From Eledone cirrhosa (lineage: Eukaryota): 64,000 nucleotides of DNA. Location of the stretch: positions 1,798,001 through 1,862,000 of the forward strand of contig OZ024753.1 of NCBI GenBank assembly GCA_964016885.1, in the 5' to 3' direction. Every line of letters begins with the position of its first letter. The first letter of the stretch is position 1. The notes beneath the pieces are model-generated. The model did not search any database. It saw only the letters and a list, made by a program, of their open reading frames with translations, and was not told the origin of the DNA. Below are positions 12,860 to 62,786 of this stretch, one piece after another. The position numbers and the translations under genes are program-made.

Positions 12860-13647
12860 CTGAAAAGAGTAAAGATAATGAAGTGAAGAATGAGGGCAGA
12901 AAGTAAGAAAAAACAAGACAAAGAAATGCAGTAAAATATTGAAATAACCAAAAATGATGATTTCACAGATATGTGTGATAAAAGAACTCGGAGAAACTAT
13001 ATTTATATTTTTAACTGTTGGTCAATCAATGATAAACATTGATTACCAGCTAAATTATTTATAGAAATATAAAGATATACTGACGCAAAAATGAAACCAA
13101 ACAGTAAGTGTATTTTACTATATTTTTCTGGCAATATTAGAACATGACTCTCCCCAAATATAACATAAAAATATTTTTTTTCTTTTAACTCTTACACTAA
13201 ATGTATCCCAGTTTTTAGAATAGGTACATTGTATCTCTGTGTTGTAGGAGGTGACTAAAGCGGTTGGCACCAGGAAGGGAATGTGGCTGTAAAATATTAT
13301 TTCAAATCATCCTGTCCAAACACATGCCAGCATCGAAAAAATGGTCTGAATGTCCTGTACCACATGAAACTGCATTAATAAGACATTCTTGAAAAGTACA
13401 ATCTAACAGCATCAAGTATTCTACCCAGAACATATCATTCATGAAACAGTAATAATAAGGGAACACAACTGGCACACATACTCAGCAATCTGGGTTCAAT
13501 TTCTGGTCAACATTTAGAAACCCCACCCCACCCACCCACCCACAATAAAAAGGGAAACAAAAATGAGAATGAAAGAAAAAAAGAGGAGAAAATGGAAGAA
13601 AGAAGAAAAGAAAGACAATAAAAATTTAGAAAAGGAAAAGTGCTTAC

Positions 13648-13893
13648 CTTATGTTTGACAGCTACACCATAGACACATGGCATACTCTCAAAGGACTGGT
13701 GAATCTGAACACCAGATACAGGTTCTGCAGGTGAATCATTGGATATATGGAAATACTCATTCCAGCAGCCACCTGCTCTATCTTCCTTCACACCACGACC
13801 ATTTTTAAAGGTAAACATAATGCTAATGTCCAGATCTTCATCCCCAAGATTCTCAGCTGTCCATATAAACACTGCACAGGGAAGACTAGTATC
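13648..13893 (-). CDS. GBA2: GBA2 exon 5
   Basis: DTSLPCAVFIWTAEN...ISIMFTFKNG...WNEYF...AVKHK; AG/GT flanked. Confidence 0.95.
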
Positions 13894-14777
13894 CTACATG
13901 TGTAGAAGTCAAGTGAATTGTGTTACCATAATTAAAATGAAAGACATTGACTATGACTTTTGAATAATTAAAAAAAATAATCAAGAATTTAGTAGTATAA
14001 CTAACATTCTGATTATTAAGCAGCAAGAAAGACCAGGATAGAGGTGGTGAGAGCTGATCTCAAATTGCTGAGACTCACAGAGGAGACGATGAAGAAATGT
14101 GGTGAGTGGAGAGATGCTGTGCTGAAAAGGACCCATCCAACCTATGCAAGTGTGGAAAAACGGATGTAAAAATGATGATGATGATGATGATGAAGGTCTT
14201 CAGTTCTCTGCACTTAAAGGAAACAAAATAATATGATGTTGGCTGAAATGCTTTTGATCATAGACCAAGTTAATGAAGGCCGGTCTGAGTCTAAACAACA
14301 ACAATAACAATACAAAATCTTTAGATAGTGCATCATTGGCTCAATGGGTTACAGTAAACAGGCTAATATAAACGATATTATAAAGACCTTGCCAAATTGA
14401 AATAAGAGTTTTGTAATATGATTTACAATAAAAAGACTTGCAAGTTCAATCTGAACATTAGATGATACTATAAAATAGCCTTAGATACACTGCCTGTAAA
14501 AGCAAAAAATGAAGGAAAGGCCACAAGTCTATTGATTAAGGTTGCCCTTGGGTTAAAATACTTCATTTCATGTTGCTGCAGTATACTCAGCTGAAAATGA
14601 GTACCAGTAATACTTAGTGTTAACTCTGCGTTGGACTGGCGTCATATCCATAGTTGAGTCTTGTACTCTGAATTACTCCTTGCCACAAAACCGGGATAAA
14701 TACTGGCCTAATGAACCTTCTGGCTTGATACAGACTTTAGACTTTTGGGTTAAATAACAACAGTAACTACAACTTAC

Positions 14778-15002
14778 TTGATATTCATGGGGATAGATTG
14801 GTGAAACTTGGCGGCATGTCAGCCGAACATTATGTTCAGGAATATTATATACTGTCCAAGAGTGAGGATAAAGGGCATGGTATGTTGCATGGTCTGCATC
14901 CAGGTTCCATTTCCAGGAATTTAAACTTTTATTTTCAGGTTTCTTCACAGACATTACTTGTTGAAATACAGTCTTATTTTTCTTTTGAATGCAGACAACG
15001 AA
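14778..15002 (-). CDS. GBA2: GBA2 exon 4
   Basis: FVVCIQK...YHALYPHSWTVY...LTCRQVSPIYPHEYQ; AG/GT flanked, phase 0. Confidence 0.96.
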
Positions 15003-15142
15003 CTGTAACATAAGGAATAAAGAAATGGAAGTTGCAATGGTGTGTGTATGTGTGTGTGTACAGAGTCGTGAAGGTAGATCAGAAGATCCCATAATAGGGT
15101 GTAAGCAGAAATTATTTGCTTAAACTTTAATCAGTACTACTA

Positions 15143-37161: not shown

Positions 37162-38765
37162 CAGTGCCCCACAAAAGTTTACAACACATTAGGAAAAATG
37201 CGGTTTTAGGTATTTTTAATAAAGTTAGGGTAATGAAAATTTAACTACTGATAGAATATATAATGAGGCATTTAATGATACAATTATATTTTTTTTTAAA
37301 TAACAAGGAAATAACTCATGAAGAAAAATCAATATTTTTATAACGCAAAAGTTTACAACACATTTATTAAATCATCTCTTAATATTTTGTAGCGTAACCT
37401 TTGTTGCTAATTACAGCCTGTAGGCATTTGAAGTAGCCTCCTACAAACTTCTTGGCTAATATTTTTCCATTCTTCACAACAAATTTTCTTTAGTTCAGGG
37501 ATATTTTTGGGTTTCCTTTTTTGAATTCTGAGTTTCAGTTTTCTCCACAAATTTTTGATCGAGTTAAGATCTGGAGACTGACATGGCCATTTTAGAACAT
37601 TTGTTCCATTCGTACTTAACCAAGATTGTGTTAGCTTTGCAGTATGCTTTGGATCGTTGTCTTGTTGAAAAAAACCAAACTGGCTTTAAGCTGAGAGAAT
37701 GTGCACTTTGATGTAAATTCCTTTGCAAAATACCTCTATAATAAGCGCCATCCATTCTTCCTTCTATTATTTCAATATTTCCTACACCTGTGGCACTAAA
37801 GCAACCCCAGACCATGACTGATCCACCTCCAAATTTTACAGTTGGAATAGTATTCTTCAGTGAATATTCAGCACCTTTCTTTCTCCAGACTTTTGCCACA
37901 GCATTTCGACCAAAAAGTTCAATTTTTGTTTCGTCCGACCAAAATACATCTTCCCAAAATGACGCAGGTTTGATGAGATGCTCATTTGCAAAGTTTAATC
38001 GACGAAGAACTTGTTTCCTCGTAAGATGTGGTGTTTTCCCTGGAGACCTCGAGAAGATATATCGATGTAGTGAACAACTAATTGTATCTGTGCTCACTTT
38101 TACTCCACTTTCTTCTAGGTCATCCTAAACATTTTAATGAGTACACCGGGGTTCGTTGCCAACCTTTCTCGTCGATAACCGAGCTGCACGTTCCGTTATC
38201 TTTCTAGGACAACCATAACTAATTAGAGGACAGATGGAATGATGAGATTTCAAGTGATGAATTATAGTCCCAACTGAACTTAATGGCACATTTAACTGAC
38301 AAGATATCTTTCTATAACCAACACCATTTGTATGAAGGTCTACAATGCGTTTACGGAGGTCTTGATCAATCAGTTTATTTTTCCCCATATTGTCAATGTT
38401 TACAGGACGGTTGTCAATGCTTACAGGATGGTTGTCAGACAAATAATGACGTAATGTTTTTAATTGTCCTTAGAAGTTACCTTAAACCTAATCTAGAACA
38501 TTCTACTGAATTTTAAATCTGAAAATTTAAGAATTTTCTTGAAAAAAAAGCGATAAATATAAAATGTATTGTAAACTTTTGCGTTATAAAAATATTGATT
38601 TTTCTTCATGAGTTATTTCCTTGTTATTTTTTTTAAAATATGATTGTATCATTAAATGGCTCACTATAGGTTCTATCAGTAGTGAAATTTTCATTACCCT
38701 AACTTTATTAAAAATACCTAAAACCGCATTTTTCCTAATGTGTTGTAAACTTTTGCGGGGCACTG
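37162..38765 (-). mobile_element. Full-length but dead Tc1-family DNA transposon with ~204-bp IR/DR terminal inverted repeats
   Basis: Ends CAGTGCCCC...GGGGCACTG; TA on the left, CA on the right (probable mutated TSD); TIRs 37162-37365 and 38562-38765 each carry two CAAAAGTTTACAA(C/T)ACATT direct repeats. Confidence 0.96.
37379..38388 (-). pseudogene. Tc1 (DD34E-type) transposase pseudogene
   Basis: MGKNKLIDQDLRKRIV (paired-like HTH), WSDETK, TVKFGGGSVMVWGCF, FQQDNDPKH, SPDLNSIKNLW (third catalytic E replaced by K); ORF broken by stops and frameshifts. Confidence 0.93.
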
Positions 38766-38766
38766 C

Positions 38767-44967
<6,201 letters not shown>

Positions 44968-45419
44968 TTGATATGGTTCAGCCAGTACTGGCCCAGGCCA
45001 TGCCTAATTTAGTAACATATACATGAATATATATATATAAACAAAGACATGCATATTATATGTATATACACACATACAAACATACATACACACATAGATA
45101 CATACATATACATTAGATATAAAATTGTTAACCTTGTTTTTTTTTTTTCATTTTGAATATATATATATATGTGAATTAGACTGGTCATTTGTTATCTTCT
45201 AATCTCCACTTAACATATATAGTGAAGCTATAAAGATCCATTTATATACAAACTATAAGTCAAGTACATAGGGAGTATTGCCATATCTGTTTACACTACT
45301 GCTTTCTCAGCAAGGCTTCTAATATAAAAACAACTGCAGCTATGTGTATAATAAATTTATCTCAAATCTTTATGTATGTATGTATGCATATGTGTGTGAT
45401 TCATTTCATTTCATTTCAT

Positions 45420-54605: not shown

Positions 54606-56235
54606 TATCTCAGAGCTTATATGATAAGATTTGCTTTTTACTCTTCTAAGTGGTATCCATCACTTTTCTAATTAGTCTGGCAAATTATTATTATTATTAT
54701 TATTACAATAATAATAATGGGGATAATGGCTTCTTTGGTGCAAAGTTAATTGTTTATTTCATTGAGCCCAGAAGAGAAGTAAAGTTTACCCAGGTGAGAT
54801 TTATCTTCAGAATGTAGATGGATGTACTTAAATACTGCAAAGCAGTTTGTCCATTGCTTTACCAATTCTGCCAATTTACCACCCTTAAAATAAAAGTGAT
54901 GATAATGATGAGAATGATAATGAGGATGATGATGACAATGATAATTTCTTTGATTTTCACACGGCCACCCTTTTACAGGGTATAGGTATAATCAGTTGAA
55001 AACTGTATATCTATCAATTCAGTGACCCCTTCGAAGCACCCTGCTTGACATGAGCTCAGAACCATAAGACAATGAGGCCCTTTGTCAAAAATGACAATTC
55101 TTTATTAATTATAGAGAATTATAGAGAATGCCACATTGAAGCCATTGATAAATTTCTGAACTAATGACTTCACACTTTGTATTTAACTCTTAATATCCTG
55201 TACCACAACCACATGAAACCACATTCACAAAAAGAATTCTTGAAAAGTCCAAAACAGCATTATCATTGCATCATATTGAAATATGAGTGTTCCAGTTGTT
55301 GTTTGATCAACAAAATAACCTGCTCATGAAATTAACTGGCTGACCATTCCACAGACATGTGTACTCTTAACATAATACTCATGGTGATTCAGCATAACAC
55401 AGTGTGTGTGGCAAGGCATATCACTTACCTTCCTGCATTCTGCAGAGTGCATCCTGTGCATTTTATTGTGACACCAGCACTAGGGAAGCGGTCATATATT
55501 TGACACAACCAAAGAGTCCTCTTGACTCTTTGTTTGGCAAGTTGTCTGTGGTTGGATTTCCTTCGAATCACCAACTACTATACAAAGTGTACTGGGTGTG
55601 TTTATCATATCACTAACACTATTGAGGTTATGTCCTGGACACAACAGAAGAGCTCTTCCAACCTTTTTGGCATAGTTTGTACAGTTGGATATGCTTTCTA
55701 TCTCCATTTACCTAACAGCCTGTACGGGGTGCATTTTTCAGGGCATCAGCCCTCAACTGAAGAGCCACCTCTACTCTAAGGGGGGAGGGGTAAGAAGAAA
55801 CATAAGTACAGTGTCATGAGTGTATGGCAGGTAGAAAAGGTGAGAGAATATGTCATGGGTGAGATTTGACTGGGTGATTGTATACACATTTTATCTGGCA
55901 CTCCATCACTTCTACCACTCCACCCAACCATCTATTTTTATTTCTATCTTTAGAAATAATGATTTCTAATTTAGGCACAAGGCCAGCAATTTTGTGGGGG
56001 AGGGGAAAGTTGATTAAATTGATCCCTGTATTTGATTGGTACTTTATTTTATCAACTTTAGAAGGATGAAAGACAAATTTGAACTCAGAGTGTAAAGAGA
56101 TATAACTGAAAGATGTAAAGTATTCTGTCTGATGCTCTAATGACTGCCAATTCACCATCTCTCACTTTAGAATTAATAAAATCTTGCAGAATCCATGGAA
56201 ATTCCACGTTTTATAATTTTTCCTATTTCTACTTC

Positions 56236-56395
56236 CCAGCCCACGCTGTAAAGTGGTCGTGTAGGCATCACGACAAAAAGCACCCAGCACACACTGTAAA
56301 GTGGTCGTGTAGGTGTCACGACAAAAAGCACCCAGCATACACTGTAAAGTGGTCGTGTAGGTGTCACGACAAAAAGCACCCAGCACACACTGTAA
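56236..56395. repeat. 48-bp tandem repeat internal to a SINE
   Basis: CACCCAGCACACACTGTAAAGTGGTCGTGTAGGTGTCACGACAAAAAG, about 3.3 copies. Confidence 0.9.
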
Positions 56396-56779
56396 ATGTG
56401 GGTAGGCATTAGGAAGGGCATCCAGTCATAGATACCAAACCAGAAACAGTTCTGTATGAGCTCGACATGATCACCTGACCTGACTTTCCTCAAATGGGTC
56501 TAACTCATGCTAGCATGGAAAATAGATGTTAAACGATGATGATGATGATGTATATATTTAAAACATTTTTTATGTTAAATCTTCATTTTCTTTTCAATAT
56601 TTAAGATTATATATTTTCTTTCTTTCCGCCTCTTTGACCATGGTCATCTCTCCCACAAACACTTATCTCTCCCCCATCCTCCTCCTTTGCTGCCTTACTA
56701 TCTACCTATCTGATTACATCAAATGACAACAACAACAATAACAACAACAATGATAATAATAATAAAAATAATAAACAAA

Positions 56780-56950
56780 TAGGGATTGCAATACAGATGG
56801 AACACTTACAAAAAACAGCATTGCTTGGAACAGCTTGAATACTCTAGAGGGTACTCGAAAAATAAGGGGTGTAACCTCAGTTCACTGGTAGGGAACTGCT
56901 AACACTATAATACATCTCCAGCATTTGACACTGAATGAAAAAAAACACTA
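56780..56950 (+). mobile_element. Short 3' remnant of an R4/Dong-like element
   Basis: EHLQKTALLGTA*IL*RVLEK* between (AAT)n tracts. Confidence 0.7.
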
Positions 56951-56984
56951 ATAATAATGAAAATATTCTTCCAAATCAAAGAAT

Positions 56985-57340
56985 CATTTCCAATACTTGA
57001 TAATATATCTCTATTCGAAACTGAAAAAGTATCCAGATATAAAGATCTGGAAATAAAGACAATCAGAATGCGGGCGATTGAAAACGGAAGCAATCCCTAA
57101 AATTATATATGTCTTGGGAATGATTAAAAATTGCAGATAATTACATAAGCCAAAATCCCAAGACTTACAAATATGTGCAATATACAGAAAATAGTGCTAC
57201 TAGGCACTGCACACACACATTACATAGAGTATTATCAAAAACAGTAGAAAATACAAGACCAACAAAAAACATTTCACATACCCAAGGCACACAGAGTTGT
57301 GCTTGGCAGTTCAATAAAAAGACAAAATTAAAACTAAAAA
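56985..57340 (+). mobile_element. 3' remnant of an R4/Dong-like element
   Basis: ETEKVSRYKDLEIK...NIQKIVLLGTAH.LHRVLS, with frameshifts. Confidence 0.72.
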
Positions 57341-58202
57341 GAAAAGTGTCTATCCCAAGCCTGGTGGCTTATATTTGGCAGAGTTCAAGACTTCCCTCTG
57401 GACAGAATTCTAGTCTATCGCAAGGTTAAACCCCAGCTATTGCTGGTACTCATTTTCAGCTGAGTGGACTGGAATAATAATAATAATGATAATAATAATA
57501 ATAATGAAAATAATAAATTTTAAACATTGGCAATAGGCCACATATTTTGGGGTAGGAGAAGGTCAAGTCGATTTAACCCTTTAAACCCTGTTCACAAGAT
57601 TATCTTGTGACAAATGAAAGCGCAAAGTGAATGTTTTAGAGTTTATAAACTTGTCTGGTTCTCACTTCATCAAGCACATTATGATGAAAAGCAAGATTGA
57701 ATTGAGTAGGAATTACATTTAGAAAACAAAGGGACTTAACTTGATACTTCAAAGTATTTAAGTCAGCAGTGAAATGTTTCTGCCGGATACATTTCTGAAA
57801 TTATCCCACAGCAACCAATTTGTAAAGAGGGAGGAATAGTTGAATTCCTTAACCCCAATATATGACAAGATACATATTTTAATGATGTCAGGGGTTGGGA
57901 GTAACAAGGATAACGAGCTAAATCGACTTTGGCCATATTTGATGTGACTGAATGTGTTTAACAAAGTAAATTGGTGTCTGGAGCTCTGCAATTTCTGCTC
58001 CATTCTTCACCCTAGCACCTCATTTAATAATTCAATAACAACAATAACAACAACAATGTTATTAATAATGATTTCTAATTTAAGCACAAGACCAGCAATT
58101 TGTGAGGAAGTGAAAGTCGATAACAATTTCAGTACATTACTGGTTGTTTATTCTATTGGTCCTTAAAGGAAGGAAGACAAAGTTGACTTTGGCAGGATTT
58201 AA

Positions 58203-58310
58203 CCTTTAAACCGCTATCGTCAACAAATTGCGACAATAGAGTGATCTCCCCTACATACATAATGCAGTGTCAAGGGAAGCAATTCATTAAAAAATTCAGT
58301 GTGCTGAAGG
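58203..58310. mobile_element. Short TTAA-flanked MITE-like insertion inside a SINE
   Basis: SINE motif GGATTT(G)AACTCAG is split as GGATTTAA-CCTT...AAGG-TTAA-ACTCAG. Confidence 0.65.
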
Positions 58311-58800
58311 TTAAACTCAGAATTGGCTCAAAGTCTGTCAAGGTTAACTTTGCTTTTCATCCTCCTGGGGGTCGATAAAATAAAGTACTAGTAAAATACT
58401 GTGGTTGATATAATCAACTTAACCTTCCCCTAAATTGCTGGGTATGTACCTAAATTAGAAATCAACAATAAAAGTAATAACAACAACAAAAGCAGCAGCA
58501 ACAGCAGCAACAACAACAATAGTGTTCACTGCTGTGAATATACCAATGAGATTGCATGCATTAGAGCATTGGGGGGAGGTTGGATTAGATTTGTTTCAGT
58601 TTCTCAGAGGCAATGGTAATGGTGGTGGTGGTGATGATGATGGTGGTGGTGATGGTTTGTGGAGGGGGTAGTGGCGGTGGTAATAGTGATATTGGCAGTG
58701 GTGTCGGTGATGGTGGCAGCAGTGGTGAATGGTGGTGGTGGTGGTGGTGGTGATTGGTGATCATGGAATAATGCTATGATATATATATATATATCTATGT

Positions 58801-59013
58801 CTACTGAATAGAACATGGAGGTGAACCGAGTGCTGCATCGTGCTGGTGGAGGGCATGGCGGGAGGGCATATGGCTGACAACGTGGGTGGTGGTGGTGGCA
58901 CTACTGCTGCCGGATTGTCCTGAAGTGCCGGCATTTGCCGAGCTCCCAGCAGCGGCCCCGGCAGCTGTTCCGCTGCCACTACCACCCCCTCCAGCCGCCC
59001 TATCCAAGTCTAG
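58801..59013 (-). CDS. Putative stop-codon readthrough extension of Kv-beta (70 codons + TAG), ending in CaaX motif CSIQ
   Basis: In frame directly after TGA-CTAG: LDLDRAAGGGGSGSGTAAGAAAGSSANAGTSGQSGSSSATTTTHVVSHMPSRHALHQHDAALGSPPCSIQ*; GC-rich, with (TA)n starting just after the TAG. Confidence 0.65.
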   Translation of the reverse strand, partial: LDLDRAAGGGGSGSGTAAGAAAGSSANAGTSGQSGSSSATTTTHVVSHMPSRHALHQHDAALGSPPCSIQ

Positions 59014-59106
59014 TCACCTGGGTGGATGCTCCTTTCGTGACAGGGGTTTGTTGCCAAGCAACTTGTCCAATTCATTCATCAATGGTGGTGTCAACTTTGG
59101 CACATA
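59014..59106 (-). CDS. KCNAB: Kv-beta terminal coding exon (canonical stop TGA at 59016-59014)
   Basis: YVPKLTPPLMNELDKLLGNKPLSRKEHPPR*, matching the KCNAB C-terminus (PKL...EID.ILGNKP.SKKD). Confidence 0.95.
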   Translation of the reverse strand, partial: YVPKLTPPLMNELDKLLGNKPLSRKEHPPR

Positions 59107-60093
59107 CTGTAATACAAAAGCAGAGAATGGTGGTGAAATAATATTACTGGCAAAATTTAATTATAGGTATATGTTGTTATAAGTTTATATAATAAATTCA
59201 TACATATACAGTTTGAGTAGTGCAATATAACACACACACACACATACATACATACACACACACATATATATATATATTTGTTATATATAACATATATATA
59301 AATGTATTAGTAAAAAACTATTATTAACAATGACAAACAATATCTGAACTATTAACTTTAACCCTTTTAAAATCACATTATCTTTCATATGATTTTAAAA
59401 GGGTTAAAGTTAATAGTTCACATTATCTTTAATATGGTTCTGTAACCATCACATATTTCTCTCACAAAAATATATAATATCTCTGTCAATCATTGCCGTA
59501 TTTAAACTGTTTCTTTGGAGCTTAACTTTTGCACTTTGTACCATGATGTTATGAATGATTTTTATATATTAAGTGTTCTTAATGTTATTCTGTGTGGAAT
59601 ATTATTCGGAAGCATTTTAATAAACTCTGAAGACACCTATGCTGAATTACTAATCATGAGTTACTAATCATGAGTTACTAAATATAACTCTCTGTGTGTC
59701 ATTCAATACAGGTAAAAACAGATTAGTTTACAAATGCTTTAACTCTTTGGTGTTATTTAAACTATTAATGTATATATATATAGAGAGAGAGAGATAGATG
59801 CAAATTTACAGTACAAAACAAAATGAAATTAGATATTTCAAATTTGTAGTTTTATACAGAAATAGGTAGGCTAGTTGAAATAATCACGGTTAAGTAATTT
59901 GTGTTTAGACTGATCAGTTTCAGCTATGGGTAACTTTTCAAAATATAATTTTCAAGGCTACATTTGAGGTGGTGTTGTTTAGTTTTTAACACAGATCATT
60001 ATAGTTCTCTGGCCCCTTTAGCATCACACCGCAATGACCTATTCAACCCATGCTAGCATAGAAAATAGATGTAAAATGATGATGTATAAATAC

Positions 60094-60182
60094 CTGTAGA
60101 GCCTGGAGGTTTTCATAAAGTTGATCCACTGATGTAGCTCCGAGTAAGACACAATGAATGGCTTCCTGTCTAATACACCAAG
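60094..60182 (-). CDS. KCNAB: Kv-beta exon
   Basis: AWCIRQEAIHCVLLGATSVDQLYENLQALQ. Confidence 0.96.
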
Positions 60183-60889
60183 CTAAAATATAAAGATAAA
60201 TTTCAATATTTGGTGAGCAGAAGATATCTAAAGAAATGGGTTTGTTAACTCAAATATTTATGTTTTTACTTTACTAGAGGAGAGATCATTGTGAAAATTT
60301 ACAGTTTTAGGTTAAGGACTTTCATTTTTAATTTCCTGCAATCATAGCGCTGTTTTGTACTTTCCAAGCATGCTTTGCTAATGCTGTTTCATGTGAAACA
60401 AAATGTTAAGAATTTAAGGTGATACAGTTTTGTTGCAGAAGATTACTATTATGAGTGAGATAGGGTACCGTATAAAGGGGATGTTTCAACTTATACTGGT
60501 CATTAGTTCAACATTTTAAACCTTACAATGTTTGTCCATCATTGGGAAATGATATATCAGGCAGTAAATTGGCAGAGTTATTAGAACGTAAGATAAAAAG
60601 CATTGATATTCTTTCTGGCTTTCTTTGCAATCCGAGTTAAAATCTTGCCACAGTCAACTTAGCCTTTCAACCTTTCAAGGCCAATAAAAAAAAATGTACC
60701 AGTCTAGTAGTGGGGTTTATTCTTCCTCTATATCTCTTTCTCACTTCCTGGAAGAAATCTTCATATGCCAACCTGAAGAAAGGATAGGCCCCACCAGTTT
60801 TAAAGTGCCCATACGTCATGATGATGCACCTATGATTCCATTAGAAGTTACAGGTTCATACATACATGGGTAAATGAAATGTATCTTAC

Positions 60890-61010
60890 CTATTGCCAGT
60901 TGAGCCAATGAACAACCTAATTTATCAGCAACAACTGCCACTTCTCTAAGTCGTGCTTGCTGTTTGCGGCCCTCTTCACTGAGAATTTTATCTTTCAGCC
61001 ATCCGTAATT
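60890..61010 (-). CDS. KCNAB: Kv-beta exon
   Basis: NYGWLKDKILSEEGRKQQARLREVAVVADKLGCSLAQLAI. Confidence 0.96.
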
Positions 61011-61636: not shown

Positions 61637-61731
61637 CTTTAGGGCAGCACGAGAATAGATCGGAACTCCATCATCATACTTCCCTGAAAGAATTCCTGAT
61701 GCTAATGGGGACCAGCAAACTGTACCAACAC
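61637..61731 (-). CDS. KCNAB: Kv-beta exon
   Basis: [32 protein letters not shown]; AKR WSPL motif. Confidence 0.96.
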
Positions 61732-62665
61732 CTGCAAATGAAAAGAAATATTTGATTCCACATCTAGACTTAATAGTATTGAGTTTTATTACACATTACA
61801 CAACACAATATACAAATTATTACAAAGAGGCGATGGGCACTGCCAAGTTTTTTTATGTAGAATGATGATGGAAACTTTTTAGAAATATATAAATACCATG
61901 GAACCAGGGGTTGCTTCAGGTAGTCTGGTATCAAAATGATTAAAATCTATCACAATTCATACATCACATCATTTTTGGAAGGTGTCCTCTTATGATGAAA
62001 CAATCACATGACTAAGATTAAAGAATGATTCTAATGAGATTCAAAATCACAATCATCCAGTTGCAGATCACATGATCACTTTTATTTTAACTTGTTTTGT
62101 TTCAAAAATATGTAGACTGTATATGGATGTTACAGGCAATGAATTGGCAGATTCATTAGAATGCCAGTTATGTTTTGCAGTATTTGTTCCTGCTCTCTGA
62201 ACTTTCACAGCTCAAATCTCATAGATCTCAACTTTGCCTTTCAACTTTTCAAGGTCGATAAAAAGAACACCAGTTAAGTATTGTAGTCAATTCTTCCTCT
62301 ACATCTCTTTCTCCCTTCCATTCTCTTGCACTCTATCTTTCTCTTGAAGAAATAGGTTATGTTCAAACCTGGGGCGGGGAATGGCCTCTGCCAGGTTTAA
62401 AATGACTAAGATACATTGTAGGTCACAATGACATGCGTACAGTTCCTGTTCCATCTTTTATTTCTCATTCTATCTTCTGATGAAGGACTAGTATCTGAAA
62501 TGTTAAGACTCTTTTCCTATTATTTCAAGCGTTAAACTAATATATTTTTCATTGTACTGGTCATTTGCCTTTTTATTTCTGTTTACTTTTCATACACACA
62601 CACAATATATATATATATATAGATAGATATAACAGACAGTGCTGTAATGATATGGTGGAATTTAC

Positions 62666-62786
62666 CAATTTTTGTGTAGATCTCATGCATGTGAAGCTCA
62701 ACCTTGTCTCGATGAAACATGTTATATTCAGCTTGTTCAGCAGTTGGTGGGATCAGGTTAAATTGGCGGGCTACAGCATAACTTTC
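62666..62786 (-). CDS. KCNAB: Voltage-gated K+ channel beta subunit (KCNAB/Hyperkinetic-like), internal exon; upstream exons lie beyond the window
   Basis: [40 protein letters not shown](G), similar to KCNAB2 [32 protein letters not shown]/GT flanked. Confidence 0.95.

Follow-up and report, generated by a model that had tools for sequence, protein, structure and literature searches.

Does the octopod gene for the potassium channel subunit Kv-beta conceal, behind its stop codon, a second C-terminus that carries a lipid signal? The initial annotation of a 64-kb stretch of the Eledone cirrhosa genome (hereafter the window) proposed such a tail, reached by stop-codon readthrough and closed by a farnesylation box. 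The feature is real and under selection. The analysis presented here suggests that in octopods, and apparently in far more distant invertebrates, a leaky stop hides a tail with a lipid signal, by which a fraction of the soluble Kv-beta could be lipid-tagged.

The Kv-beta gene in the window

The minus strand of the window, part of a genome of 3.0 billion bases, carries the 3' half of a Kv-beta gene. The host protein is Kv-beta2 (KCNAB2; PDB 2A79, 3LUT, 7EJ1; TIGR01293), a Kv1 subunit with an aldo-keto reductase fold, to which the octopod protein aligns over its whole length, up to the final residues preceding the stop. Exons with approximate ends are found at 62664..62786, 61637..61730, 60892..61010 and 60094..60186, followed by the last common exon, YVPK...EHPPR (terminating in RKEHPPR), at 59106-59017 (all minus strand); the last of these is spliced to its upstream neighbour in two assembled data sets, X13 and X19, whose contigs have loose ends at 59109. 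Over their true extent, the exons in the window match Octopus bimaculoides Kv-beta2 (P0001) at 94-100%. Further exons lie upstream, outside the window on the same contig, and one of these (L009) has the catalytic DTAEVY motif, which is kept in alignment with Kv-beta2. Scored as whole proteins against TIGR01293, the O. bimaculoides proteins P0003 (535 bits) and P0138 (475 bits) both exceed the cut-off of 365.4, while the exons of the window's own genome, scored singly, fall below it. A Kv-beta tetramer docked on the T1 domain of Kv1 is assumed here from homology to solved complexes. Vertebrate Kv-beta models end in KKDYRS without a tail, and in this they differ from the octopod extension.

The long Kv-beta intron also houses open reading frames that by eye resemble pieces of a Tc1/mariner-type transposase (37564-38442) and an AT-rich simple repeat of about 6.4 kb with a GC content of 8-9% (38600-45000). 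Two short, protein-like open reading frames at 13507-15092 (minus) probably represent exons of an adjacent gene that lies further downstream in the same orientation.

An in-frame extension ending in a CaaX box

The last common exon runs into a TGA stop (59016-59014, minus), which together with the following CTAG forms the readthrough context UGA-CUAG (59016-59010). Joined to the exon across this single TGA, the same reading frame continues for 70 codons (59013-58804, minus), comprising Leu-Asp, a Gly/Ser/Ala/Thr linker, a His-rich distal part and the box C-S-I-Q (TGT TCT ATT CAG, 58815-58804); the second stop, TAG at 58803-58801, makes the box terminal, and an in-frame backup TAG follows two codons past it (58797-58795). 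The first AATAAA, a candidate poly(A) signal for the unspliced isoform, is found 649 bases past the second stop (58152-58147, minus). The extension has a GC content of 63% against about 35% in its surroundings, and consists mostly of Ala, Ser, Gly and Thr. The initial annotation had read the last codons as CSIQ-stop, and 58818-58801 (minus) does read CCA TGT TCT ATT CAG TAG, or P-C-S-I-Q-stop; the span it gave takes in one Pro codon, and what it called 'four codons' also includes the stop. Its remark that the extension has only one Cys also holds for all 70 codons. UAG is the triplet preferred by ADAR, and editing of the second stop in the region 58803-58795 (minus) would add two residues and silence the box.

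How readily might such an ending arise by chance? Stop-to-stop segments of 10 or more residues, counted over the whole window minus the repeat block 38400-45200, number 3403; nine end in the broad CaaX pattern C-x-[ILV]-[QSMAC] and two, the present CSIQ being one, in the strict pattern C-x-[ILV]-Q. From composition, the chance is 1.3-1.8e-3 for the broad and 1.5-2.6e-4 for the strict pattern. An open length of 70 codons at 63% GC is not significant alone (P=0.14). A lone CSIQ ending in a single genome might be luck, given that several terminal motifs would each have drawn notice; its conservation in relatives raises it above chance.

The tail has no predicted secondary structure: in a structural model of P0138, the O. 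bimaculoides protein that contains it, residues 413-473 have a pLDDT under 50. The mean pLDDT of that model is 58.6, its N-terminus is junk and the alignment over the tail is shallow, so that the case for flexibility rests mostly on composition. The 70 residues include two Arg, no Lys, five His and no second Cys, and within them neither form of Ras-type second membrane signal, a polybasic patch or an upstream palmitoylatable Cys, was found.

Conservation among close relatives

Close relatives were represented by 4 of 23 listed runs, presumed to be RNA, from four other organisms (X6, X13, X19 and X20). In three of the four (X13, X19 and X20) one contig covers the exon, the TGA and the extension in one piece. 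The loose end of X13 and X19 at 59109 corresponds to the upstream exon, which implies spliced molecules that retain the stop. The X6 contig covers the exon only, its ends falling on the splice sites at 59017 and 59109; its gap over the extension is uninformative. In all three spanning contigs, which drop minor forms, no joint, deletion, change at the stop or A-to-G difference at the stop is listed. The UGA-CUAG context thus appears conserved: the window has it, and the three other organisms show no listed difference from it.

The extension has 17 listed variable sites, 12 of them synonymous and 12 at codon position 3, corresponding to a pN/pS of 0.15 (p=1.6e-4 against site counts); these come from few, related species, so that the sites are not independent events, and the test is not a PhyloCSF run. 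Read in the other five frames, the same sites yield 0-9 synonymous changes: the other two sense frames score 4 and 0, and the frame that scores 9 of 17 is the antisense frame with common third positions. The sole indel, an insertion of three bases, is in frame. These patterns support the view that the extension evolves as protein. Differences near contig ends go unlisted (one in X20, six in X19 and eight in X13), as can be gathered from the absence of a known Pro/Ser difference from the listing, and the CaaX codons are not shown letter by letter in these contigs; for X20, the last 67 bases leave room for one change at most. Conservation of the box itself is seen in the O. bimaculoides model P0138, which agrees with the window in 62 of 65 tail residues and has the identical CSIQ at its end.

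A second layer of constraint is apparent at the ends of the extension. In organism F the first 15 and last 18 codons have no listed change, synonymous sites included; 0 of 68 bases differ at 59034-58967 and at most 1 of 67 at 58857-58791, against 13 of 109 in between. Near-invariance that extends to synonymous sites implies that a constraint at the RNA level exists, and no conserved base pairing that would account for the two blocks was found.

A splice donor overlapping the stop

The stop is embedded in a 5' splice donor, CAG|GTGACT (59020-59012, minus; intron start 59017), which the contig end of X6 at 59017 marks. About 26 kb beyond it lies an alternative terminal exon (33083-32999, minus) encoding a 27-residue tail without a CaaX box (VINN...SEHE), whose residues are identical in 28 of 28 positions to P0001 and in 27 of 28 to P0002. 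Isoform X3 of O. bimaculoides (P0001) and the assembly protein P0002 read on as PPR-VINN..., whereas isoform X2 (P0003) ends at PPR; a cluster of decapod-type assemblies containing Sepia pharaonis is similarly divided, with 6 of its 13 members ending at PPR and 7 having the spliced tail. The 27-residue tail looks amphipathic; Octopus species and Argonauta share it without change, and decapod-type assemblies differ from it only slightly. One 7-base element would thus be the source of three Kv-beta C-termini. The initial annotation overlooked that the TGA-CTAG lies inside a used splice donor to the exon at 33083-32999. Because of this overlap, the CaaX tail can be made solely from unspliced mRNA.

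Both mRNA forms occur, and splicing may account for some of the conservation of TGA-CT. The consensus base at donor position +5 is G. A Leu codon after the stop requires C or T there, so that splicing alone fails to explain the context and readthrough would explain it better. Among 73 short-ended invertebrate Kv-beta models, many of them redundant isoforms, 50 end in Arg, the outcome of a stop inside an AG|GTRA donor, and the overlap may therefore be old. At this exon many spiralian Kv-beta models either terminate in Arg or continue by splicing into varied tails, which suggests that the stop-in-donor arrangement is widespread.

A genuine donor that is in use also permits the tail to be reached without readthrough, if a short intron running from it to an in-frame acceptor were to remove the stop (18 bases, or 144 bases to 58874). 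In-frame AG sites lie at 18, 39, 45, 75, 111, 114, 117 and 144 bases, and P0138 was modelled in this manner; the initial annotation had missed that this model already reaches CSIQ via an 18-base 'intron'. The GT-AG stretch in question (59017-59000, minus) is kept in all three spanning contigs, and they contain neither a joint nor a deletion, though contigs drop rare forms. No metazoan spliceosomal intron is known to be as short as 18 bases. The synonymous bias described above extends to the codons that would be lost with a 144-base intron, and the Leu-Asp that follows the stop is kept in two distant sequences, P0122 and P0123. A short intron is accordingly improbable, and the 18-base 'intron' of P0138 is probably a gene predictor's device for avoiding a stop within a coding-like stretch.

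Distant relatives

A search of 1.84 billion representative sequences, with the exon and extension as query, returned four matches. P0121 and P0124 were dropped as repeats. The other two, P0122 and P0123, are single sequences that start in an intron-like stretch and continue into the last Kv-beta exon, for which the nearest named exons are those of annelids, bivalves and gastropods. Their last exon is identical to that of the window in 15 of 30 (P0122) and 17 of 26 (P0123) positions, as compared with 27 of 30 or more among coleoids. P0122 then reads R-W-LD-linker-CNLQ-W over 77 residues and P0123 R-W-LD-linker-CVIQ-W over 37; both have Gly/Ser/Thr linkers, one Cys in each extension, a W where octopods have the stop and the box at the matching place. 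In P0123, W occurs only at 88 and 126, the two stop places. The simplest reading, drawn from protein letters only, is that both W in each sequence are stops, a TGA having been called Trp on genomic contigs; W-L-D would fit UGA-CUAG without proving the bases.

The search did not choose the CVIQ of P0123, since the match ends at residue 119 and the Cys is at 122, whereas the CNLQ of P0122 lies within the matched stretch and was partly selected by it. By composition, the probability of a C-x-[IL]-Q ending is about 2e-4 (strict) or 2e-3 (broad) for each sequence. The initial annotation had suggested asking whether the box is kept while the linker diverges: CSIQ is present in P0138 and C-x-[IL]-Q, behind altered linkers, in both informative distant matches. 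A stretch T-H-V-[VI]...H...M-P in the distal linker is common to the window (58893-58860, minus) and P0122, and could be a second conserved motif.

Annotated proteins rarely contain the tail. A Cys at position -4 occurs in 1 of 256 Kv-beta-family proteins longer than 150 residues (P0138 only) and in none of the best 120 of 1168 matches, and beyond P0138 those 256 proteins include no lineage that encodes a CaaX tail outright. Many gastropod models, and all vertebrate ones, end otherwise. With the extension alone as query, none of 25 candidates among proteins of 38-123 residues was retained, and a metagenome scan with the exon alignment gave three loci from 316 stretches, which were distant, of non-animal type, with different ends and no CaaX, and were uninformative. 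Fragments with dissimilar tails score lower and go unseen, so the search does not set the spread of the trait. Three hemichordate Kv-beta models (P0035, P0242 and P0243) have an encoded, linker-like Gly/Ser/Thr-rich tail that ends in GTSSH and lacks a CaaX box.

If the extension were never translated, its conservation would have to arise from other sources: splicing would preserve the stop context as a donor, a regulatory role at the RNA level would preserve the GC-rich stretch, and the CaaX box would be a coincidence. The near-invariant blocks at the extension ends in organism F and the 50 of 73 models with the Arg expected of a stop in AG|GTRA both suit such an account. It does not predict a synonymous bias specific to one frame or an in-frame indel, nor that two distant fragments should each reach C-x-[IL]-Q just before their next stop, at some 2e-4 each by composition, and it is very improbable. 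Translation of the extension, judged from these sequence patterns, is very likely.

Probable passage beyond the stop

Coleoids edit mRNA heavily, and a 5' G is a disfavoured neighbour for ADAR. Editing of UGA to UGI, which would be read as Trp, could open the frame instead of readthrough; hepatitis delta virus obtains its CRPQ tail by this route, and the bases 3' of the stop allow a long, GC-rich stem. The stop's A, however, has a 5' G before it, the stem lacks conservation, a CUAG context speaks for decoding, and the tail seems to be present in non-coleoids. Nor is a variant listed at 59014 in X13, X19 or X20, in contigs that miss minor forms. Editing as the route to the tail is thus barely credible.

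The stem begins 12 bases past the stop (fold z -1.97), and five of the six pairs hit by variants are broken, so that no conserved 3' stimulatory structure was found. Selenocysteine insertion at the UGA was considered and rejected: no SECIS family appears in 55000-59300, where three weak Rfam matches are repeat-driven, and homologues lack a Cys at this place.

For UGA-CUAG, efficient readthrough has been reported in four mammalian genes, at up to about 31%, compared with 1.5% for UGA-CUA alone (PMC4132726). Readthrough in this context is probably the means by which the octopod extension would be made.

The CaaX box as a predicted prenylation substrate

Rap2A (CNIQ) and prelamin A (CSIM) are farnesyltransferase substrates. 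A lone farnesyl is a weak membrane anchor. The set of 489 prenylation positives from yeast Ras61/Ydj1 screens includes CSIQ, CNLQ and CVIQ, and the last two also belong to the 140 sequences that scored highest with Ras61. For each of the three, PrePS and the authors' model predict prenylation, with cleavage predicted too; this class makes up 15% of 8000 Cxxx, and CNIQ is predicted positive as well (PMC9231725). These data concern tetrapeptides in reporter contexts in yeast. The initial annotation's view of X=Q as a farnesyltransferase-type motif agrees with the place of CSIQ in this positive set, and the PrePS prediction that it recommended is positive in the published tables, as are SVM, FlexPepBind and Freq (H-Ras/reporter context). 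A companion screen found broad reactivity over most CXXX (bioRxiv 2023.02.06.527295), which makes being a substrate a low bar.

The predicted protein has a Cys at -4, an aliphatic a2 residue, a permissive X and a true C-terminus, and upstream of the box a segment that is modelled as flexible and accessible. The conservation of I/L and of Q suggests that all three processing steps would follow. By every testable feature of its sequence the element would belong to both the UGA-CUAG and the CaaX classes; the Ras-type second anchor is lacking. Farnesylation of the tail, if the tail is made, is highly probable.

The outcome is less certain. The tail may be translated and farnesylated, with the lipid acting not as a plasma-membrane tether but as a handle for a protein partner, for turnover or for ER retention; this shares with the tether account the choice among three C-termini, readthrough included, and only its outcome differs. 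The tail has no second membrane signal, Kv1 already brings Kv-beta to the membrane (PDB 2A79, 3LUT family), and farnesylation alters the conformation and partner-dependent functions of the hepatitis delta large antigen (PMC3185554). On the other hand, the motifs belong to the canonical cleaved class and were found by a membrane-recruitment (Ras61) screen, and a long flexible linker is retained in all three lineages. As a complete explanation, a role of this kind is somewhat unlikely. For the farnesylated chain itself, the lack of a polybasic patch or second Cys makes stable tethering doubtful and a trafficking or partner role equally plausible; the chance that the lipid, once attached, serves as a membrane tether is about even.

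Proposed mechanism

In the proposed mechanism, the CAG|GTGACTAG element would choose among three Kv-beta C-termini. Used as a splice donor, it would join the distant exon and give the 27-residue tail without a CaaX box; on unspliced mRNA most ribosomes would halt at the UGA and produce the canonical short subunit. Gene models and assembled transcripts show both of these outcomes. A few ribosomes on the unspliced mRNA may instead, as conservation suggests, place a near-cognate residue at UGA-CUAG and run on for 70 codons to CSIQ-stop. Farnesyltransferase would then modify the Cys, and Rce1 and ICMT would probably trim and methylate the end, to judge from the yeast tetrapeptide reporters. Extended and short chains would co-assemble in the Kv-beta tetramer, and because Kv-beta is a tetramer a small share of readthrough would mark many complexes: by arithmetic, readthrough of 5, 10 or 20% would leave at least one farnesyl on 19, 34 or 59% of tetramers. 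From the T1-docked position, the unstructured linker could let the lipid contact the membrane or a prenyl-binding partner. In the weakest step, Kv1/Kv-beta complexes might be biased in their site of assembly, travel and dwell.

Taken as a whole, readthrough to a farnesylated minority isoform is the favoured explanation and is reasonably likely. More tentatively, and at somewhat less than even chances, the element may be an old spiralian switch in which the donor is also the leaky stop: splicing choice and readthrough rate would together set the share of farnesylated tetramers and so direct Kv1 complexes towards membranes or axonal domains, an arrangement that octopods would share with non-cephalopod spiralians.

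If this is correct, prenylation would be added to the few functions shown to be gated by stop-codon readthrough in cellular genes, for which otherwise only single-species predictions were found. Kv-beta, held to be soluble, would gain a lipidated isoform in animals of classical potassium channel physiology (the squid axon; Aplysia is not counted here). It would also be a case of deeply conserved readthrough outside Pancrustacea, the group to which abundant readthrough was confined among the species surveyed in a study that names no mollusc in its main text (PMC5100048). The two annotation artefacts met here, an 18-base intron and gene calls that read TGA as Trp, could be mined for further such tails.

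Comparison with known systems

No report of Kv-beta readthrough or prenylation, and no published lipid anchor for any Kv-beta, was found in a literature search whose coverage is incomplete for subscription journals and for the Drosophila and Anopheles supplementary gene lists. Hyperkinetic does not appear in the main text of PMC13170385, and the text available for PMC11639194 holds nothing relevant.

The closest parallels in decoding are LDHB, with its hidden PTS1 (PMC4359377), and OPRL1, OPRK1, AQP4 and MAPK10 (PMC4132726), all of which have the same stop context. In LDHB, as proposed for Kv-beta, a minor isoform acquires a signal that can act only from the extreme C-terminus; the LDHB study also screened for prenylation sites before pursuing the PTS1 (PMC4359377). 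The signal in LDHB is peroxisomal, whereas that of Kv-beta is a prenylation box, and the Kv-beta host is a channel subunit whose stop overlaps a used donor. The large antigen of hepatitis delta virus is the nearest likeness in product, since bypass of a stop adds a farnesylated C-x-x-Q tail (PMC3185554). There, in a virus, ADAR converts UAG to UIG and the tail of 19 residues ends in CRPQ, all experimentally established; the Kv-beta proposal comes from sequence. Similarly, readthrough has been measured in the LDHB/UGA-CUAG class and is deduced for Kv-beta.

Syx17 is already a membrane protein. Its readthrough extension in Drosophila has a predicted prenylation motif (PMC3840789, Table 2), and in Arabidopsis a prenylation signal is predicted in the readthrough tail of MT1C (bioRxiv 2021.11.09.467898); both resemble the Kv-beta extension, and each is a single-lineage prediction. 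Kv-beta differs from both in that widely separated animals retain the motif behind linkers that have changed.
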